The notes beneath the pieces were generated by a model that worked only from the letters and a program-made list of their open reading frames with translations, was not told the DNA's origin and did no database searches. Positions 905-50,264 of a stretch of 50,264 bases of DNA are shown piece by piece. Source of the stretch: Clostridiales bacterium (lineage in GTDB: Bacteria; Bacillota; Clostridia; HGM11327); assembly GCA_015056475.1 (NCBI GenBank), contig SVGF01000001.1, positions 1 through 50,264 on the forward strand, given 5' to 3'. Position 1 is the first letter of the stretch; every line of letters starts with the position of its first letter. The translations under genes and the position numbers were made by a program.

Positions 905-1753
905 ATGGATAATATTATTTCAGTAAAAAACGTAACGTATAAATATGACGACGGCGCAACCTCTCAGGAAGCGGCGCTTGAGGACGTTTCTCTTGACGTT
1001 AAGAGGGGGAGCTTTGTAACCGTTATAGGTCACAACGGCTCGGGAAAATCCACTCTTGCAAAGCATCTTAACGGATTGTTTTTACCGAGTGAGGGCTTTG
1101 TGGTCGTTGACGGAATATATACCACCGACGAGGAACAGATATGGGAAATAAGAAAGGTCGCGGGAATGGTGTTTCAGAATCCCGACAACCAGATGGTTGC
1201 CACCGTTGTTGAGGAGGATGTTGCATTTGCGCTCGAAAATATAGGTATCCCCTCTGAGGAAATACGAAAAAGAGTGGACAACGCGCTTGAAACCGTCGGC
1301 ATGACAAAATTTGCAAAGACCTCACCCAGCCACCTTTCCGGCGGACAAAAGCAGAGAGTTTCCATAGCGGGTGTGCTTGCAATGAAGCCAAAGGTAATTA
1401 TTTTCGACGAGGTCACCGCAATGCTTGATCCCCTCGGCAGAAAGGGAATAATAGATACCGCGCTAAAGCTTAATAAGGAGCTTGGCATTACTATAATAAA
1501 CATCACTCACTATATGGAAGAGGCCATAAATTCCGATGAGATATTCGTTATGAATGACGGTAAATGCGTTGCAAGCGGCACACCGAGGGAGCTTTTTAAG
1601 AGAGTGGATTTCTTAAAGGAGCTTGGGCTCACCGTGCCCGTGGCAACCGATATAGCACACAGACTTAACAGCAAGGGCATCGAGATTCCCTGCAATTTGC
1701 TCACTATGGATGAGCTTACGGAGGCATTATGTCAATTAAAGCAGAAAATTTGA
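905..1753 (+). CDS. ecfA1: ECF transporter ATP-binding subunit EcfA1
   Basis: Walker A GHNGSGKST, ABC signature LSGGQKQR, Walker B IIFDE. It sits in tandem with a second ATPase and EcfT. Confidence 0.9.
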   Translation: MDNIISVKNVTYKYDDGATSQEAALEDVSLDVKRGSFVTVIGHNGSGKSTLAKHLNGLFLPSEGFVVVDGIYTTDEEQIWEIRKVAGMVFQNPDNQMVATVVEEDVAFALENIGIPSEEIRKRVDNALETVGMTKFAKTSPSHLSGGQKQRVSIAGVLAMKPKVIIFDEVTAMLDPLGRKGIIDTALKLNKELGITIINITHYMEEAINSDEIFVMNDGKCVASGTPRELFKRVDFLKELGLTVPVATDIAHRLNSKGIEIPCNLLTMDELTEALCQLKQKI

Positions 1754-43463: not shown

Positions 43464-44735
43464 TCACGTCACTATAACCGATATTCCGTCGGGAATTGCC
43501 GTTATAGACGGGTTATCCTTTGCTAAGATTCTTTTAGCCTTTGCAATGGCATCCTCAATGGATGAGGCGGGCATCATGTGCATCTGTTCAACAACGTCAT
43601 CCTGCATATTTGAAACGTAAATAACGCTTGCCTTGCTTAAGACTCTCAGCATTATCTGCGTCTGCCATTGGTCGGGGACGGTTTCGTTTCGCTTACGGCT
43701 CAAGAACGTCTGCATAGTTTTGTTTATGTCCTTTTCGTCAGCAAGCTGATGATAAAAATGATCTCCGCCAATGCCGTCGTCGGAGGATGCCAGCATAATT
43801 ATCACGCCACCCTTCTTAACTGTTGCCTCTGCCGTGGTCATACCCTTTACCGCTTGATACATATTTTGATCCAAGGGATAACCGCCGTTTGTGGAGATTA
43901 CGATGTCTGCAGGTATCGCCCCAACCGCGCAAAGAGAGGATATAAAATCAGTTCCTTTTGCATGTGCCTGCTCAAAATCGCCTGCTACCGCATATATCGG
44001 CTCTTTTTTGGAATTCAACACTACGTTAACAATAAACGCCAGCCTTGCTTTTCTTGCAGCCCAAACCATGTCGCGGTGTATCGGATTGCCATCCAAAACG
44101 CCTGTTCTTGCATTTTTGTGGGCAATAAATTCCGAGCAATGATTGGCAAGCACCGTAGCTCTGCTTGCAACGCCGGGCAAAACGCTTTTTCTGCCGCCTG
44201 AAAAGCCTGCAAAAAAGTGGGGCTCAATAAAGCCCTCAGCCACAAGCAGATCAGCTTCATAAGCGATCCTGTTGATCTTGCATTGCCCACCCGACGGCAG
44301 AATGCCTATATCAACAAGATTATCCTCATCATCACAATCGTGAACGATTATCTTTTCGCTTTCAACGATATCCTCGCCAAATTTGGCAATAAGCTCCTGC
44401 TTCGTCGTTCCTCTGTGACAGCCCGTTGCAATGAGAATGGTAATATCTGCATCGGGATTCCCGCATCGTATTTCATTCAGCATTTTGGGGATAATGATCT
44501 TGCTCGGCACGGGGCGAGTATGGTCACTTGCAATTATTACAACGTTTTTCTTGCCCTTTGCAAGCTCGCAAAGTGTTTTACTGCCTATCGGAGAGTCCAT
44601 TGCAGTTTTTACGAGTGCATCACCACCAAGCTCGGGTGTATATTCCTCAATAGATGACGTTAGCACACCCAAAAGCTCATCACCAAACTCATGCTCCAGA
44701 TGTCCCTTCCCGTAAAGAAAAGAAATTTTTTCCAT
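43464..44735 (-). CDS. larA: LarA-family nickel-pincer-cofactor-dependent 2-hydroxyacid racemase/epimerase
   Basis: SDHTRPVPS, ATGCHR, EPHFFAGFSGGRKSVLPG (tether Lys) and ANH motifs. These align with my recollection of Lactiplantibacillus plantarum LarA. Confidence 0.8.
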   Translation of the reverse strand: MEKISFLYGKGHLEHEFGDELLGVLTSSIEEYTPELGGDALVKTAMDSPIGSKTLCELAKGKKNVVIIASDHTRPVPSKIIIPKMLNEIRCGNPDADITILIATGCHRGTTKQELIAKFGEDIVESEKIIVHDCDDEDNLVDIGILPSGGQCKINRIAYEADLLVAEGFIEPHFFAGFSGGRKSVLPGVASRATVLANHCSEFIAHKNARTGVLDGNPIHRDMVWAARKARLAFIVNVVLNSKKEPIYAVAGDFEQAHAKGTDFISSLCAVGAIPADIVISTNGGYPLDQNMYQAVKGMTTAEATVKKGGVIIMLASSDDGIGGDHFYHQLADEKDINKTMQTFLSRKRNETVPDQWQTQIMLRVLSKASVIYVSNMQDDVVEQMHMMPASSIEDAIAKAKRILAKDNPSITAIPDGISVIVT

Positions 44736-44769
44736 CTTTATTCTCCCACTTCCTTATATTGTACTTACG

Positions 44770-44798
44770 TATTGTACCATAAAGAGCTGTGTTTTTCA
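44770..44798 (-). promoter_or_regulatory. Promoter of larA
   Basis: On the minus strand: TTGAAA, a 17-bp spacer, then TGgTACAAT. Confidence 0.55.
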
Positions 44799-44890
44799 AT
44801 ATAAAATAAAAAGCTTTTCGTCCGAAGGAAGAAAAGCTACCACGATTATTTATAGCAAAGGGATCTTATCCTATAAAGTTGGATTAAATT

Positions 44891-44922
44891 GAAAAAAACT
44901 AACGCTGATGCGTTAGTTTTTT
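44891..44922. terminator. Bidirectional hairpin terminator at the left edge of the AT-rich island
   Basis: AAAAAAACTAACGC-TGAT-GCGTTAGTTTTTTT. Confidence 0.7.
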
Positions 44923-44924
44923 TG

Positions 44925-44946
44925 AGTTACCAAAACAATTTCGAAC
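44925..44946 (+). repeat. Left copy of the island-flanking direct repeat
   Basis: GTTACCAAAACAATTTCGAACC matches GTCACCCCAACAATTTCGAACC at 50063-50084 at 19 of 22 positions. The exact shared core is the 14-nt AACAATTTCGAACC. Confidence 0.5.
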
Positions 44947-45102
44947 CTGAATTTATATATAAATATTCAAGAGTTATTAATGATACGTAAAACAGAAAGT
45001 AACGAAAGAACTCCCCAATGGCCGAGAACAAACTATCTAATTAACTGTTTTTTCCGCCTTAGAATGTTTCTTTTTTCTTTCAAATATCATTATTATTCTT
45101 AA

Positions 45103-46641
45103 TTACTCACCCAGTTTTATGACCACATATTCGTCAATGACTTTAACCGAACCATTATTGGGCCAAACCGGCATCTGTACAACTTCGGGCAACTGCCCAA
45201 CCAGATTAAGTTCCTCGCCATCAATCTTTATCGGACGATGTCCCAAATAATGATAGACCCAATATATTTTGGAGTATTGATTAAGCATAGTTGCAACATC
45301 GGTCTGACCACCGTATAAGTGTTTTTCTCCCCATGGACGTTGGTTAAAATAAGTACTGTCTGTTGTGCCGACAAAAGCCCAACGCTTGTCGGTAGTATAT
45401 CCATCCGCCATATGAATCTGTGTTATGATAGAATTCATGGTGTTTTCAACCTGTCTATTTGTAAAGTACATCGAGGAATAGTTTATGTTTGCAAAATAGG
45501 AATTAAAGAATATAATTACAGCCAAAATTCCTATGCTTATAGCACTAAATACTTTCGTTCCTTTCCCAAATGCTTTTTCTTTCTGTGGCACATCCCATAA
45601 TACTATGGGGACAAACAATAAAAGTGAAAACGGTAAAACCATAAGTGTGTATACCTGTGCTGCACCCATCAGCACGATCAAATTGATCGCTAATGGAAGT
45701 AACACACACAAAGTTATTGTAATAATTATATCCAATGGTTTCTTCTTGTTCTTTTTTAACAAGATTATTATCATAGTTAACGATATCAATGCAAGAGTAA
45801 GATATGATAACCTTAAAATGGGACTCGTTGCCAAACTACAGTAATCTTTTACCGGCAACAGTACAAACTCTTTCACAGCTTTAAAGACAAGTGTCGGTAG
45901 TTCGCTCAAAGGTAGTTTTCCCATATTGCTTATGCCTTGATAATCAAGCAATGTGGTATTTGTGTTTTTGAGCATTACCTTTAAAACTACAAAATACTCT
46001 ATCAAACCGACACACATTGTGCCTAAATAAACAAACCCTTTTTTTATAATGTTCTTTGCTTTAGTCTCTTTTTCTACCGCTTTTTTTATCAACAATATTA
46101 AATATATGGATACTACCCATGGAAAATATGCTTGATATATTCCAAGAGTTAAAGCAATGAGTACGGTTGATATAGAAAAACCATAACGCCACCTATCTGT
46201 TACCCATACCGCAATTACTCCTAACAAGATTGCCAATCCGTAATGGGGGGCTGTGTACTTAAAAAACAAAACAACGGTAATCGATGGAAAAGAGACAAGC
46301 CCCGCCCCAATAATACTCGCAAACAATTTGTTCTTGATACCAAAAGCAGAAACTAAAAATGCGACTGTTAAACTAATCAACAACAGAAAAACCAAGCCAT
46401 TAACCCATGGCAAGTTAAAATTTCCGGTAGTATCATCACCAATTCTTTTTAAAATATACAAAAACCATCTGCCGGACGGTAGTGATGTTCCGACACCAGC
46501 AGGCTGTACTGCGATGTCATCATAATTATGTATTGAGTTAGTAAGGACAAACAGGTGAACTATCAAACCGAAAATTATTGTGGTTGTCATCGCCGTGAAT
46601 GCAGGAGTTTTTTTATAATCATTTATCCATTTATTTATCAT
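45103..46641 (-). CDS. Polytopic membrane glycosyltransferase, GtrII/glucosyltransferase-domain-like
   Basis: 512 aa with more than 10 hydrophobic segments. It is the last gene of the GtrB-GtrA operon and overlaps gtrA in an ATGA arrangement. It has an N-terminal HNYDDIA...SGRWF segment. The family call comes from context plus pattern. Confidence 0.55.
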   Translation of the reverse strand: MINKWINDYKKTPAFTAMTTTIIFGLIVHLFVLTNSIHNYDDIAVQPAGVGTSLPSGRWFLYILKRIGDDTTGNFNLPWVNGLVFLLLISLTVAFLVSAFGIKNKLFASIIGAGLVSFPSITVVLFFKYTAPHYGLAILLGVIAVWVTDRWRYGFSISTVLIALTLGIYQAYFPWVVSIYLILLIKKAVEKETKAKNIIKKGFVYLGTMCVGLIEYFVVLKVMLKNTNTTLLDYQGISNMGKLPLSELPTLVFKAVKEFVLLPVKDYCSLATSPILRLSYLTLALISLTMIIILLKKNKKKPLDIIITITLCVLLPLAINLIVLMGAAQVYTLMVLPFSLLLFVPIVLWDVPQKEKAFGKGTKVFSAISIGILAVIIFFNSYFANINYSSMYFTNRQVENTMNSIITQIHMADGYTTDKRWAFVGTTDSTYFNQRPWGEKHLYGGQTDVATMLNQYSKIYWVYHYLGHRPIKIDGEELNLVGQLPEVVQMPVWPNNGSVKVIDEYVVIKLGE

Positions 46642-47105
46642 TTTGACTTCCCTTTTCTGAAAACAACAATCTTAGAAAAAATATAATTAAGCACCAAAAC
46701 CGCAAACTGTGCACATACTTTTACGCCAACGCTGTTGAATTTCAATACCACAGCAAAGACAAGCAATAGTATTTCTTCTATGACAAGCGTCGCAACTCGT
46801 GCGCCTGCAAACAACGCTGCTTCTTTTAATGCGCCTCCGCCCTTGACTGAAGAATTAAATACCCATTTTTTGTTTGTAAAATACGCAAACGATACGGCTA
46901 AAACCCATGATATTACGTTCGTTGTCATTATATCCAAACCTATAACTTTTTCACAAAAAACAAATGAGAAGATACTAACTAAAGTTGTTAATGCACCAAA
47001 AAACAAATATAAAAATATTCCCTTGTATTTTTTGTAAAACGGGTATATAATTCTGATAAGAGGCAGATTAAATATTTTATCAAATATGTCCATGATAATT
47101 ATCAT
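46638..47105 (-). CDS. GtrA-family small membrane protein (lipid-linked sugar flippase type)
   Basis: Four TM segments and the FTNKKWVF motif typical of GtrA-like proteins. The start is uncertain (47105 or 47093). The longer ORF-track start overlaps gtrB extensively. Confidence 0.7.
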   Translation of the reverse strand: MIIIMDIFDKIFNLPLIRIIYPFYKKYKGIFLYLFFGALTTLVSIFSFVFCEKVIGLDIMTTNVISWVLAVSFAYFTNKKWVFNSSVKGGGALKEAALFAGARVATLVIEEILLLVFAVVLKFNSVGVKVCAQFAVLVLNYIFSKIVVFRKGKSK

Positions 47106-48045
47106 CGGTTTCTTTTTCCGAAGTTTTATACTCTTTAACAATAAAAATAGGACGGTTTTTTCCTTGGAAATACACTTTTGCGAGGTATGATCCCAACGCC
47201 CCAAAACAAATCAACTGTATTCCGCCGATCAGAAGCATTAAAACTACAACTACAGCATATCCAGGTATCGCTATTCCAATGATAAATTTTTGAAGCACCA
47301 CTACAATTAAATACAACAATGATAATAGCAAACAAACAACACCAATAATTGTCGAAATCTGTAGAGGAAAGGCTGTAAACGCTGTAATTCCGCCTAAGGC
47401 ATATTTTACAAGTTTTTGAAATGACCACGATGTCTCTCCTGCATTTCTTTCTGAGACTTCGTACGGCATATAGTGAGTTTTAAATCCAACCCACGAAAAA
47501 ATGCCTTTCATAAAACGATAACTCTCCTTACAACTTAAAATAGCATTACGAACGGGTTTTCTAAATGTTCTAAAATCACTCGCGCCTGATTTAAAATCAA
47601 CATCGCACATCTGGTTGATCAATTTATAAAACATATTTTTGCATTTTACAACGAGTTTGTGTTCTTTTCTATTTTCCTGGTATGCCGCAACGCAATCATA
47701 GTCGGCATTGTTGTCAAGAATACTTACCATTTGCAAAACTGTTTCAGGGCGTTGCTGCAAATCTGTGTCAATTATACAAGTATAATCACCATCAGCATAT
47801 TGTAATCCAGCATACATCGCAGCTTCCTTCCCGAAATTTCTGGAAAAATTTACTATCTTTACAACATACTTTGCTTTTGCTAAAATTATGTTTAATTTTT
47901 CAAGCGTGTTATCGAAACTGCCATCGTTTATAAAAATAAACTCTGCGTCGTTTATTACGGGTCCAAACACCTTCTCGCATGTATCGTAAAACTTTTCGAC
48001 ATTATCTCCTTCGTTATAGCAAGGACAAACAAGTGACAATTTCAA
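47080..48045 (-). CDS. GT2 polyprenol-phosphate glycosyltransferase (GtrB/CsbB-like)
   Basis: SLVCPCYNEGDN at the N-terminus, the DxD motif IIDTDLQ, and two C-terminal TM helices. The start is a TTG at 48045 with GGAGGG 8 nt upstream. Confidence 0.8.
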   Translation of the reverse strand: MKLSLVCPCYNEGDNVEKFYDTCEKVFGPVINDAEFIFINDGSFDNTLEKLNIILAKAKYVVKIVNFSRNFGKEAAMYAGLQYADGDYTCIIDTDLQQRPETVLQMVSILDNNADYDCVAAYQENRKEHKLVVKCKNMFYKLINQMCDVDFKSGASDFRTFRKPVRNAILSCKESYRFMKGIFSWVGFKTHYMPYEVSERNAGETSWSFQKLVKYALGGITAFTAFPLQISTIIGVVCLLLSLLYLIVVVLQKFIIGIAIPGYAVVVVLMLLIGGIQLICFGALGSYLAKVYFQGKNRPIFIVKEYKTSEKETDDNYHGHI

Positions 48046-48048
48046 AAC

Positions 48049-48258
48049 TCAATCCCTCCAATATATTTCAAAATATGTTTTAGATCCACCATTAAAATTT
48101 AGAGCAAGACCTCTTTCAAAATCTGCAAGCGTAATTCCGCAATCAGTAAGCACTTCATTATCAAAAAAATCAGTAAAGGCAGGAAACATTTTTGGATCAT
48201 CTTCTAATAAAGAAATGAATTCATCTACAAATTCCTTATATTCTTCATCTTTACTCAT
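48049..48258 (-). CDS. Small acidic hypothetical protein (69 aa)
   Basis: An uninterrupted ORF in AT-rich DNA. Its last codons contain the gtrB RBS, which suggests translational coupling. I recognised no family. Confidence 0.45.
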   Translation of the reverse strand: MSKDEEYKEFVDEFISLLEDDPKMFPAFTDFFDNEVLTDCGITLADFERGLALNFNGGSKTYFEIYWRD

Positions 48259-48265
48259 AAGGCTC

Positions 48266-48460
48266 TTAATATAACTTACGATCCATCATAGAGTTTGTCT
48301 CGTTATCATCAACAATTAGTTCGGGTGTTGCATACCCATTATATTGCGATGAATACTCAATGGTTATGTAGTCTTGAATATCTACAACCGATAAAGAACA
48401 GCCTGCAAAAATAAGCATAAACACAATAAATACACTCATAAGTAAAGTGATTTTGTTCAA
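48266..48460 (-). CDS. Small putative lipoprotein (64 aa)
   Basis: Signal peptide with the lipobox FAGC. The start is a TTG that overlaps the stop of a 29-codon upstream mini-ORF. There is no clear RBS. Confidence 0.35.
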   Translation of the reverse strand: MNKITLLMSVFIVFMLIFAGCSLSVVDIQDYITIEYSSQYNGYATPELIVDDNETNSMMDRKLY

Positions 48461-48592
48461 ACATATAGATTTGCATTTCTTATGTAATGCTTTGCGTCTT
48501 CATTTAAGAATTCAAAAATTCTTTTACCACAGTTTTTAAAATTCATACTTTCTATCCTAAATTCTGTTGTTATGAATTACTCCTAATAGAAT

Positions 48593-48618
48593 TACTACAT
48601 ATTTCTGATTATGTAGTA
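48593..48618. repeat. Recombinase core-type site L (9-bp arm / 8-bp spacer / 9-bp arm)
   Basis: TACTACATA-TTTCTGAT-TATGTAGTA. The two arms are perfect inverted repeats. Confidence 0.6.
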
Positions 48619-48845
48619 TAAATAAGAGAAAATTTATTCAAAAAAGTACAACATGATTCAAAAAACATAAAATACCACGACAAACAGACCAACAAAAAAG
48701 TATTTCATTTCGTTGGTCAATTCACCATGCTTGAATGGGTAAAATCTTAACTTTTATTAGATTTTACTGCTTTTTCTATTTACAAAATAAGTAAAAAATG
48801 GTATAATTATGTCAAATAATATATGAAATTACTACATAATCAGAA
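48603..48845. mobile_element. Candidate invertible DNA segment (inverton) carrying a promoter
   Basis: Perfect 16-bp inverted repeats: TTCTGATTATGTAGTA at 48603-48618 and TACTACATAATCAGAA at 48830-48845. They are separated by 211 bp, and a tyrosine recombinase gene lies immediately adjacent. Confidence 0.6.
48779..48807 (+). promoter_or_regulatory. Near-consensus promoter inside the invertible segment
   Basis: TTTACA (48779-48784), a 17-bp spacer, then TGgTATAAT (-10 at 48802-48807). It currently faces away from the minus-strand glycosylation operon. Confidence 0.6.
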
Positions 48846-48855
48846 TTATGTAATT
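48830..48855. repeat. Recombinase core-type site R
   Basis: TACTACATA-ATCAGAAT-TATGTAATT. The spacer is the reverse complement of the L spacer at 7 of 8 positions. The site overlaps the recombinase stop codon. Confidence 0.6.
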
Positions 48856-49694
48856 AGAATGTCGTTTTGAAGCAGACCCAACCTTTGGATCTGCTTTTGG
48901 TGTATTTCACCACTTTCTATTGTGTATATTCGAGTTGTGTTTATGCTGCTGTGACCGAGAATATCAGCTAATCTGACAATATCCTTTTGTATACTATAAT
49001 ATGTACGAGCAAATAAGTGTCTCAGATTGTGAGGAAATACTTTTTTATCAGATACACCTGCAGCCTTGCACAATTTCTTCATATCGGACCAAATATTCGA
49101 ACGGTTTAACGGATTCCCAGACTTTGTAATAAAAATAGGTCCCGAAGTAATATTTCTATCCTTTGAGTATTTAGATAAGACTTTACACAACTGCTTTGGA
49201 AAGAATACGGTTCTGTATTTACCCTTATTTTTAATTTCTGTATATCCATTTTTCAGTGATTCGAGAGTTATATATTTTAATTCAGATACACGAATTCCTG
49301 TACTGCATATCGTTTGCATTAACAGGTAGAGCCGTGTATTATTTTTTGCTGCGAACAGTAACCGTTCATATTCGTTTTTAGTCAATTCAGTTTCTTTGGA
49401 GGAAAACATCTTTCTTTGGATTTTTATGTTCTTTACTCTTAATTCGTACCATTCCATAATCGAAAAGAATTTGTTTAAGGAGGAGAGGATTGAATTTACA
49501 CTTGCTGGTGCGTAGTTTTCTATTAGGTATGATTTATAAGTAAGGACATCTTTCTTTTCAAATTCATTATTAGGTAACCATTTAATAAAAACTGTTATAT
49601 CATGGATGTATTTGCTGATTGTGGCAGATGATTTTTCTTCTTCTAACAAATATTGGTGGAAGCTTTCGATTTGTGTTGGGTCAATATATCGCAT
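48846..49694 (-). CDS. Tyrosine recombinase (XerC/XerD/integrase family, 282 aa)
   Basis: Catalytic signature residues are present: TGIRVSEL (Arg), HNLRHLFA (HxxR), LGHSSINTT (His) and RIYT (Tyr). There is an N-terminal SAM-like core-binding domain and no obvious arm-binding domain. Confidence 0.85.
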   Translation of the reverse strand: MRYIDPTQIESFHQYLLEEEKSSATISKYIHDITVFIKWLPNNEFEKKDVLTYKSYLIENYAPASVNSILSSLNKFFSIMEWYELRVKNIKIQRKMFSSKETELTKNEYERLLFAAKNNTRLYLLMQTICSTGIRVSELKYITLESLKNGYTEIKNKGKYRTVFFPKQLCKVLSKYSKDRNITSGPIFITKSGNPLNRSNIWSDMKKLCKAAGVSDKKVFPHNLRHLFARTYYSIQKDIVRLADILGHSSINTTRIYTIESGEIHQKQIQRLGLLQNDILIT

Positions 49695-49920
49695 AAGTGG
49701 AATATCCTTTTTTGATTTTATTGTAACACAAATTTATCCGGAAATAACAAAAACCTCCACACGGGTAAAGGTTTTCAAAAACAATAATGGTGTTAATCAC
49801 GAAAAATAGATTTGTGGGATAGTATATAGGCAAAGCGAAGAGTCGTTGTCATCCCTCTCTAACTGGAATATATAATTTAAAAAGCTTTTCACCCTACGTG
49901 GAGAAAAGCACAACGATTTT

Positions 49921-50018
49921 TCATTCTTCATCAGCGAAGCGACTTCATTCTTCATTATTCATTCAAAATCCGCTTGCGGTAAATGAATAATGAATGATGA
50001 AAAATGAATAGTGAATAA
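49921..50018. repeat. Inverted arrays of a tandem heptamer (TTCATTC-type on the left, ATGAATR-type on the right)
   Basis: The left side reads TTCATTC TTCATCA ... TTCATTC TTCATTA TTCATTC. The right side reads ATGAATA ATGAATG ATGAAAA ATGAATA GTGAATA. The arrays flank a small CCGC-TTG-CGG hairpin. Confidence 0.6.
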
Positions 50019-50026
50019 TACAAACA

Positions 50027-50058
50027 AAAATCCGCCTTCTTTCGAAAGCGGATTTTGT
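50027..50058. terminator. Hairpin terminator at the right edge of the island
   Basis: AAAATCCGC-N12-GCGGATTTT followed by GT. The loop contains the palindrome CTTTCGAAAG. Confidence 0.6.
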
Positions 50059-50062
50059 ATGT

Positions 50063-50084
50063 GTCACCCCAACAATTTCGAACC
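50063..50084 (+). repeat. Right copy of the island-flanking direct repeat
   Basis: GTCACCCCAACAATTTCGAACC. See 44925-44946. Confidence 0.5.
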
Positions 50085-50264
50085 CTTATATTTTATATGG
50101 TTGAAAACTGCTCCGTTCTTTTATCTGTACGGCGATAGGTATATTCATCGTCACCGCATCCCTGCAAAACGATCTCATCATCAGTATAGCGTTTAACACA
50201 CCACATAAGACCTTTTGTTGTCATAAGGCACTTTCCAAGCTCACATTGCTCTGTCGGAATTTTT

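Follow-up and report, generated by a model that had tools for sequence, protein, structure and literature searches.

A probable promoter inverton beside a gtr-type glycosylation operon in a Clostridiales genome, and the recombinase-linked cassette family to which it belongs

The window analysed here is a stretch of 50,264 nucleotides from Clostridiales bacterium (assembly GCA_015056475.1, contig SVGF01000001.1, positions 1 to 50,264 of the forward strand). Close to its right-hand end, a short segment carrying a promoter is enclosed by two inverted sites and lies between a tyrosine recombinase gene and an operon of gtr-type glycosylation genes. This locus is very probably a promoter inverton that controls the gtr-type operon. 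Promoter invertons located beside a tyrosine recombinase form a classical class whose type example is fimS. An original prediction made from the letters of the window had read the locus in this way, and its interpretation was supported by comparison with related loci; the class is established, and it is the gtr-type target, the rules obeyed by the sites and the size of the family that make the locus a useful case.

Inverted arms of 23 nt were located by a repeat finder at 48596-48618 and 48830-48852, with 22 of 23 positions complementary (96%) and a spacing of 211 nt. The 50-kb window held just two copies of the 16-mer TTCTGATTATGTAGTA, one per strand, also when three mismatches were allowed, and the longest perfect inverted repeat in 48461-48900 was 16 nt, as against a maximum of 13 nt in 300 mononucleotide shuffles. 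The original prediction had described two inverted sites of recombinase core type 211 bp apart, sharing a 16-nt perfect reverse complement, and these sequences were found where it had placed them. Its division of each site into 9-8-9 did not stand, because the family comparison described below shows a 6-bp centre that is perfectly reverse-complementary and thereby favours a parse of 11-6-11; judged by their sequence, the sites are dif-like, with 11-bp arms around a 6-bp centre. Site L, proximal to the operon (the cargo), spans 48592-48619 and is made up of the outer arm TTACTACATAT (48592-48602), the centre TTCTGA (48603-48608) and the inner arm TTATGTAGTAT (48609-48619). Site R, proximal to the recombinase gene, spans 48829-48856 and is made up of the inner arm TTACTACATAA (48829-48839), the centre TCAGAA (48840-48845) and the outer arm TTATGTAATTA (48846-48856). 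The centre of site L is the exact reverse complement of that of site R, and since this centre is asymmetric the outcome of recombination is predicted to be fixed as inversion, in agreement with the earlier argument from opposite spacer polarity. The sole mismatch within the repeat falls at 48602, in the outer arm of site L and outside the crossover region. The two sites delimit a predicted invertible segment of 231 bp between the crossover centres (48609-48839).

Inside this segment, on the plus strand, lies a sigma-70-type promoter, TTTACA-17-TATAAT with a TG extended -10 element (48779-48807), which is directed toward the 3' end of the recombinase gene and away from the operon. It matched the consensus at 11 of 12 positions and was the top promoter-like site in a scan of 44600-50264. 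Its -10 element ends 26 nt from the nearest site when sites are defined as 18-mers, a spacing common to many family loci, and 22 nt from the repeat arm of site R. Upstream of the operon, between 48313 and 48592, the scan listed no promoter-like site on the minus strand. Two earlier claims were thereby upheld, namely that the segment holds a near-consensus promoter reading rightward, antisense into the recombinase 3' end, and that the operon has no other convincing promoter.

Under the mechanism that we propose, the recombinase (48846-49694) would bind both 11-6-11 sites and exchange strands within the identical centres TTCTGA; as these centres are oppositely oriented, recombination would invert the 231-bp segment. 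As assembled, the promoter would read to the right across site R and into the 3' end of the recombinase gene; with the promoter so directed and a terminator-like hairpin separating this gene from the operon, the latter would be in its OFF state. Once the segment has been inverted, the -10 element would be placed about 22 nt from site L, and transcription across that site into the operon would give the ON state, with a transcript carrying in order a 29-codon open reading frame (ORF), the lipoprotein gene, the gene for an acidic protein and the gtr genes. The flipped L junction would read ...TTACTACATAT-TTCTGA-TTATGTAGTAATTTCATATATT.... The OFF-state transcript would be antisense to the last recombinase codons and would meet a terminator-like hairpin near 48869-48896, and it is possible that this antisense transcript feeds back on switching. 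The likely outcome is that a polymer or protein of the cell envelope is glycosylated in a phase-variable manner.

The presumed invertase is a Xer-like tyrosine recombinase of 282 aa, encoded by an intact ORF on the minus strand (48846-49694). It carries Pfam Phage_integrase (4e-29) and SAM-like N-terminal domains, and its closest solved relatives are the XerA/XerC-like structure 4a8e (4e-21) and XerD. Its motifs GIRVSEL, PHNLRHLFA and LGHSSINTTRIYT align with the catalytic motifs of XerA (RVSE, HxLRH, GHS and IYT), and residues R135, H222, R225, H248 and Y257 are conserved in 31 homologues. All NCBIfam scores were below cut-off (XerA, 149.5 bits vs 220; XerD, 121 vs 329.6; XerC, 110 vs 335), so that no orthologue-level match to XerC, XerD, XerA, XerS or XerH was obtained from NCBIfam, and the FimB/FimE-type invertase model of the same collection matched at 2e-7 only. 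The E. coli dif site is GGTGCGCATAA-TGTATA-TTATGTTAAAT. Both arms of the family sites resemble its XerD arm (TTATGT...), in agreement with the action of one Xer-like enzyme on either arm. The outer arm of site R contains the stop codon of the recombinase gene (48846-48848), an overlap already pointed out in the original prediction; as this arm is outside the exchanged segment, inversion would leave the protein unaltered. Relatives of the recombinase number in the thousands in metagenomes and metagenome-assembled genomes (MAGs), are about 279 aa long and show 61-73% identity, and the exact sequence was present in only two blocks of indexed assemblies. Another ORF of 282 aa in the window (905-1753) was considered as a second recombinase and proved to be unrelated.

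A family scan showed that 572 of 598 genome stretches encode a relative of the recombinase, giving at least 572 loci, of which 80 were fetched. The fetched loci belonged mainly to MAGs of Oscillospiraceae, Lachnospiraceae, Monoglobaceae and unclassified Clostridia; animal guts were the source of many, and several MAGs carried more than one family locus (for example SIG626, fecal_MAG_412 and RGIG7510). The layout was compared in the 72 loci, window included, whose sequence continues for 300 nt or more beyond the 3' end of the recombinase gene. A shared arrangement was found in 71 of the 72, with paired ACATAAT-N4-ATTATGT sites of which the first starts -14 to +37 nt relative to the recombinase stop, so that the proposed check on conservation of the inverted repeats in related genomes came out in favour of the original prediction. 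The interiors are 171-293 nt long and hold a near-consensus TTGACA-17-TATAAT promoter, in many cases with a TG extended -10 element; the distance from the end of the -10 to one of the sites is mostly 16-57 nt. This promoter pointed toward the recombinase gene in 53 loci and toward the cargo in 12, and was ambiguous in 7. In most loci a co-directional cargo ORF with a ribosome-binding site begins 18-60 nt after the distal site. The window belongs to this family by its recombinase identity, site pair, interior length (219 nt by the 18-mer definition of the sites), promoter spacing, hairpin and co-directional cargo ORF; its site R starts 3 nt before the end of the recombinase coding sequence and shows no mismatch to the family pattern, and its site L shows one, in the outer arm.

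Many of 49 family cargo proteins are large surface proteins, and the domains found among the 49 were Listeria-Bacteroides repeats (9), collagen repeats (6), cohesin (5), BspA-type leucine-rich repeats (4), surface-layer homology domains (3) and dockerin (3). In a subset of loci (L002, L003 and L094-L115) an XRE-type helix-turn-helix (HTH) gene precedes the recombinase gene and is itself preceded by TnpV or DUF6809, an arrangement that may represent a regulatory or mobile sub-module. The XRE-HTH, TnpV and DUF6809 genes were rejected as a general family feature, the HTH gene being present in only 7 of 78 loci, and in the window, whose sequence extends 570 nt beyond the recombinase start on the upstream side, none of the three is seen. 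Where one MAG holds several cassettes, these may share their 6-bp centre and have very similar interiors, as in L075, L081 and L083 of MAG SIG626 and in L073 and L086; other multi-copy MAGs have cassettes with differing centres. The shared centres could make recombination between cassettes possible, or the contigs concerned could be strain duplicates within a bin. In the last 80 nt of L089, right at the contig end, two copies of the same 18-nt site stand 37 nt apart in direct orientation, which may be an assembly fold-back at the inverted repeat.

The pooled half-sites of the family (288 in all) gave the consensus tACCACATAA(T) followed by the 6-bp centre. This centre was identical between both sites, one of them reverse-complemented, in 72 of 72 paired loci. 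In 11 loci the positions flanking N4 deviate from T...A, and in each the partner site carries the compensating change. The central N4 was represented by 43 different tetranucleotides, and not one of these is palindromic. Such covariation between paired sites corresponds to the homology requirement predicted for strand exchange by a tyrosine recombinase.

Inversion itself was seen in loci encoding the recombinase P0057, a protein of 279 aa that is 68% identical to that of the window and was identical in five independent samples. The promoter points toward the cargo in L110 and L112, and toward the recombinase gene in L111, L113 and L114. The flanks of L110 and L111 are identical both upstream (323/323 positions) and downstream (300/300), and their interiors match at 202 of 202 positions only when one is reverse-complemented, as against 54 of 202 in direct comparison. 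A single-nucleotide polymorphism in the inner arm (ATGT vs ACGT) moves from one site to the other between these two loci, as expected for crossover in the centre. The pair L110/L111 is direct evidence of inversion in this family. Across species, the interiors of the pairs L016/L017, L048/L053, L053/L062 and L075/L083 were 79-82% identical when inverted and 51-58% identical when compared directly. Eight contigs break off 38-45 nt past the recombinase stop codon; where a site could be located, the break falls at or close to the inner edge of the first site. An assembler behaves in this way when both orientations are present. A second inversion further downstream, suggested by differences in gene calls between P0080 loci, was rejected; the DNA of L004 and L005 is 100% identical, and the differences are therefore an artefact of gene calling.

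These comparisons bear on two other explanations of the locus. The first is that the region is fixed and undergoes no rearrangement, the palindromic sites being operators and the promoter making an antisense RNA against the recombinase mRNA. Each site is indeed palindromic in itself, and the promoter is directed antisense into the 3' end of the recombinase gene, with a terminator-like hairpin following at about 48869-48896. Such a fixed region would not be expected to yield homologous segments that are inverted between samples in relatives, and the covariation of the 6-bp centres is what recombination, not operator function, predicts; antisense control may moreover coexist with inversion without replacing it. 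We regard a fixed regulatory region as very unlikely. The second is that the recombinase, as an integrase or Xer protein, serves a mobile element or the resolution of chromosome dimers, at att- or dif-type sites that have nothing to do with the operon. This would accord with the Xer-like character of the enzyme, the dif-like sites, and the TnpV or XRE-HTH genes upstream in some family loci, but the scores lie far below the XerC, XerD and XerA cut-offs, the upstream HTH genes are confined to the 7 loci mentioned, and several copies are found per MAG, as opposed to a single dif site per replicon near the terminus. The sites are also inverted, about 230 bp apart and always placed around a promoter beside a co-directional cargo gene, and it is the interior that flips while the flanks stay constant. 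A role of this kind in place of promoter inversion is exceedingly improbable.

From the behaviour of its relatives we infer that the copy in the window also flips, and several findings weigh against this or against the wider reading of the locus as a switch for gtr genes. Contig L001, from the same organism, matches the window over its whole length and in the same orientation. The flipped L junction gave no match among metagenome and genome contigs; a control pattern known to be in JGI contigs also gave none, and because this positive control failed, the negatives for the flipped junction carry little weight. The outer arm of site L is mismatched (ACATATT), and that of site R departs from the consensus in having ATT, not ACC, before ACATAA. 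Finally, no gtr-type cargo was found by tblastn in the other fetched family loci, so a target of this type is unusual for the inverton family.

Some of these findings would be explained if the locus were a relic, a locked inverton that no longer flips, for example on account of its arm mismatches, with the operon silent or served by a weak internal promoter. The imperfect arms of both sites and the single orientation in the two available contigs could be read in this way, as could the case of L120, whose recombinase is the closest relative of that in the window (73% identity, 336 aa) and which has one recognisable site only. On the other hand, the recombinase ORF is intact and its catalytic motifs are conserved, the 6-bp centres are perfectly complementary, and the promoter still has 11 of 12 consensus positions. 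Similar arm variants are present in other family loci, the ACATATT core of site L recurring in L094 and its sister contigs and an equivalent AATATGT variant being found in L100, and with two contigs only for the organism a single orientation means little. A locked element is thus unlikely, and a promoter inverton that can still be switched is preferred. In L120 (1160-1486) the one recognisable site overlaps the stop codon, no second site was found within 300 nt, and a tRNA-like 3' end (GGTTCGATCCC...CCA) lies downstream; this locus may be a locked remnant or a chimeric contig.

The operon that would be switched lies on the minus strand. The original prediction had listed in it a lipoprotein, an acidic protein and GtrB-, GtrA- and GtrII-like proteins, and the three gtr assignments were confirmed by Pfam matches. 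The first reading frame after site L is a putative 29-codon ORF, MNFKNCGKRIFEFLNEDAKHYIRNANLYV, with a Shine-Dalgarno-like sequence (48457-48546), which begins 50 nt beyond site L, inside the range of 18-60 nt typical of family cargo starts. Its stop codon overlaps the TTG start of the lipoprotein ORF (TTGA). The small ORF could encode a leader peptide; alternatively, translational coupling could account for the arrangement. The putative lipoprotein of 64 aa (48266-48460) has a signal peptide ending in the lipobox FAGC, and a stretch with 46% identity to it occurs in the cargo region of family locus L091. Neither this protein nor the acidic protein of 69 aa that follows (48049-48258) matched any Pfam or NCBIfam model. 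Next come a GtrB-like polyprenyl-phosphate glycosyltransferase of family GT2 (47080-48045; Pfam Glycos_transf_2, PF00535, 2e-20), whose best NCBIfam match was PgfS at 4.6e-79, below the cut-off, and a GtrA-like membrane protein of the flippase family (46638-47105; Pfam GtrA_DPMS_TM, PF04138, 3.6e-18), the start codon of which is uncertain. The last gene encodes a GtrII-like membrane glucosyltransferase (45103-46641; Pfam Glucos_trans_II, PF14264, 5e-61) identical to the NCBI entry E7312_00210 of the MAG 'Clostridiales bacterium'. The genes of the operon abut or overlap, and all three gtr components (GT2, GtrA-family and GtrII-family) are present.

The closest GtrII proteins elsewhere (72%, 57% and 58% identity) are encoded in the same gtrB-gtrA-gtrII order, in operons that have neither the recombinase nor the recombination sites. 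In L116 and L118 a fixed promoter, TTGACA-17-TATAAT, and a divergent gene for an HTH_26 regulator stand ahead of the gtr operon. Since the closest gtr operons have a fixed promoter and no recombinase, the inverton appears to take the place of the promoter in the window. The conserved promoter region beside the divergent HTH_26 gene, TTGACAATGCTCGACAAA...TATAAT (L116, 1240-1400; L118, 430-560), suggests repressor control where the window has an inverton. In L119 an insertion-sequence-type transposase lies upstream of the gtr operon.

Among known systems, the E. coli fimS switch with its recombinases FimB and FimE is similar in that a short invertible promoter segment with inverted repeats lies next to a surface-structure operon and a neighbouring tyrosine recombinase gene. 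FimB and FimE are about 200 aa long and have no SAM-like N-terminal domain, and fimS has 9-bp repeats, two recombinases and accessory sites for IHF and Lrp. By contrast, the window encodes one Xer-like enzyme of 282 aa that would act on dif-like 11-6-11 sites, and its recombinase gene is upstream of, and co-directional with, the cargo, the switch following immediately after the recombinase stop codon. The operon itself resembles the gtr operons of Salmonella, with their three-gene gtrA/gtrB/gtr(type) structure and heritable ON/OFF variation of a surface glycan. Those of Salmonella and its phages are phase-variable by an epigenetic mechanism, Dam/OxyR methylation, in a Gram-negative host, with O-antigen as the target. 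The difference lies in methylation there as opposed to the DNA inversion proposed here, and in the present host being a Clostridia MAG.

In the vpma system of Mycoplasma, inversions shuffle a single promoter among several vpma genes and do not flip a small promoter cassette. The cwpV and flagellar switches of Clostridioides difficile work through the 5' untranslated region and termination and not through a movable promoter. Passages on the Mycoplasma system describe a locus-adjacent Xer-like tyrosine recombinase, Xer1, site-specific inversions and switching of surface lipoproteins, features that recall the present locus (PMC2268961). The C. difficile elements Cdi1-7 are likewise small and invertible, precede genes for surface or signalling proteins in a member of the Clostridia and depend on a tyrosine recombinase; for most C. 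difficile switches this is RecV, which acts in trans on several unrelated repeats, and only Cdi7 has a neighbouring recombinase (PMC5903667).

The nearest counterpart is inverton group 139 with invertase group 35 in a survey of the hCom2 community (Microbiome 2025), which, according to the passages that describe it, comprises 33 invertons, 32 of them in Clostridia, from 17 strains (PMC11892184). The same passages report that the group is significantly linked to a neighbouring tyrosine-type recombinase and that flipping was verified by reads, and they give as an example Clostridium sp. D5, with 26-nt repeats and an interior of about 205 bp (PMC11892184). Geometry and taxonomy match the present family, which has probably been flagged already in that survey, although those passages present the repeat motif only as a figure, give no site anatomy or crossover centre and do not mention gtr-type cargo (PMC11892184). 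The original prediction had held that ordinary annotation would not catch this instance; this was fair, except that the inverton class is known and a Clostridia-dominated group was reported in 2025, as the passages on group 139 indicate (PMC11892184). A literature search for the site sequence returned nothing relevant.

Invertons are a main route of surface variation in gut bacteria and are well mapped in Bacteroidota but poorly in Clostridia. The present locus is a concrete example in an uncultured Clostridia MAG, and its output would be a gtr-type glycosylation operon, not a capsule or adhesin. If the proposed inversion takes place, cell-wall glycan decoration would be phase-variable, with escape from phages or host immunity as a plausible benefit; how wall polymers are decorated with glycans commonly determines whether a cell is susceptible to phages and recognised by the immune system, and an ON/OFF switch would create mixed populations. 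The family rules, a ACCACATAA-N6-TTATGTGGT site pair after a Xer-like gene of about 280 aa with a consensus promoter inside, would allow such loci to be annotated from assemblies without reads. A broader proposal, which we put forward as distinctly tentative, is that the family forms a very large class of self-contained phase-variation cassettes, almost uncharacterised so far, in the Clostridia of gut and rumen. Each would combine a Xer-derived invertase and dif-like 11-6-11 sites with a variable 6-bp centre serving as a per-locus 'address' for independent switches; antisense feedback in the OFF state might explain the 53:12 bias in promoter orientation, and in the window the cassette might have replaced a fixed, repressor-controlled gtr promoter.

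Behind the promoter, on the minus strand, is a long terminator-like hairpin (48676-48729), which folds with a 21-bp stem in the centroid structure. Its core GACCAAC...GTTGGTC is at 48687-48718, and a U-rich tail follows on the minus strand at 48659-48675. The hairpin block agaCCAATGaaa...ttcATTGGTCT is conserved in an oriented alignment of 47 family interiors. In the window the hairpin has a folding energy of -21.5 kcal/mol and a U-rich tail on the minus strand, compared with -11.5 kcal/mol on the other strand. The idea that the hairpin terminates in one direction only, toward the cargo while the switch is OFF, fits the window and was not supported across the family, where the strand opposite to the promoter had the stronger hairpin in 32 of 65 loci (p=0.63). 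The element at 48676-48729 may act as a terminator, as its structure suggests, or may instead be a bidirectional or protein-binding palindrome.

A second terminator-like hairpin, GAAGCAGACC...GGAUCUGCUU followed by UUGG, was found at 48869-48896 on the plus strand, inside the 3' coding end of the recombinase gene (fold z-score -2.9). It is on the strand that the promoter reads in its present orientation and could define a short antisense RNA. Beyond the operon, in the gap between the GtrII gene and larA, a Leu_leader match on the plus strand (44841-44923) scored 30.4 bits (E=0.003), where the gathering score is 50, and is probably due to chance; it was the only match, itself sub-threshold, when 44000-50264 was compared with Rfam, and none fell in the repeat-rich stretch at 49900-50060 upstream of the recombinase gene. 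This stretch contains TTCATTCTTCAT twice, and inverted repeats were located there at 49944-49963 / 49982-50001 and at 49960-49978 / 50043-50061. A strong terminator-like hairpin lies at 50027-50056, and a second is found at 49748-49777, just before the recombinase start.

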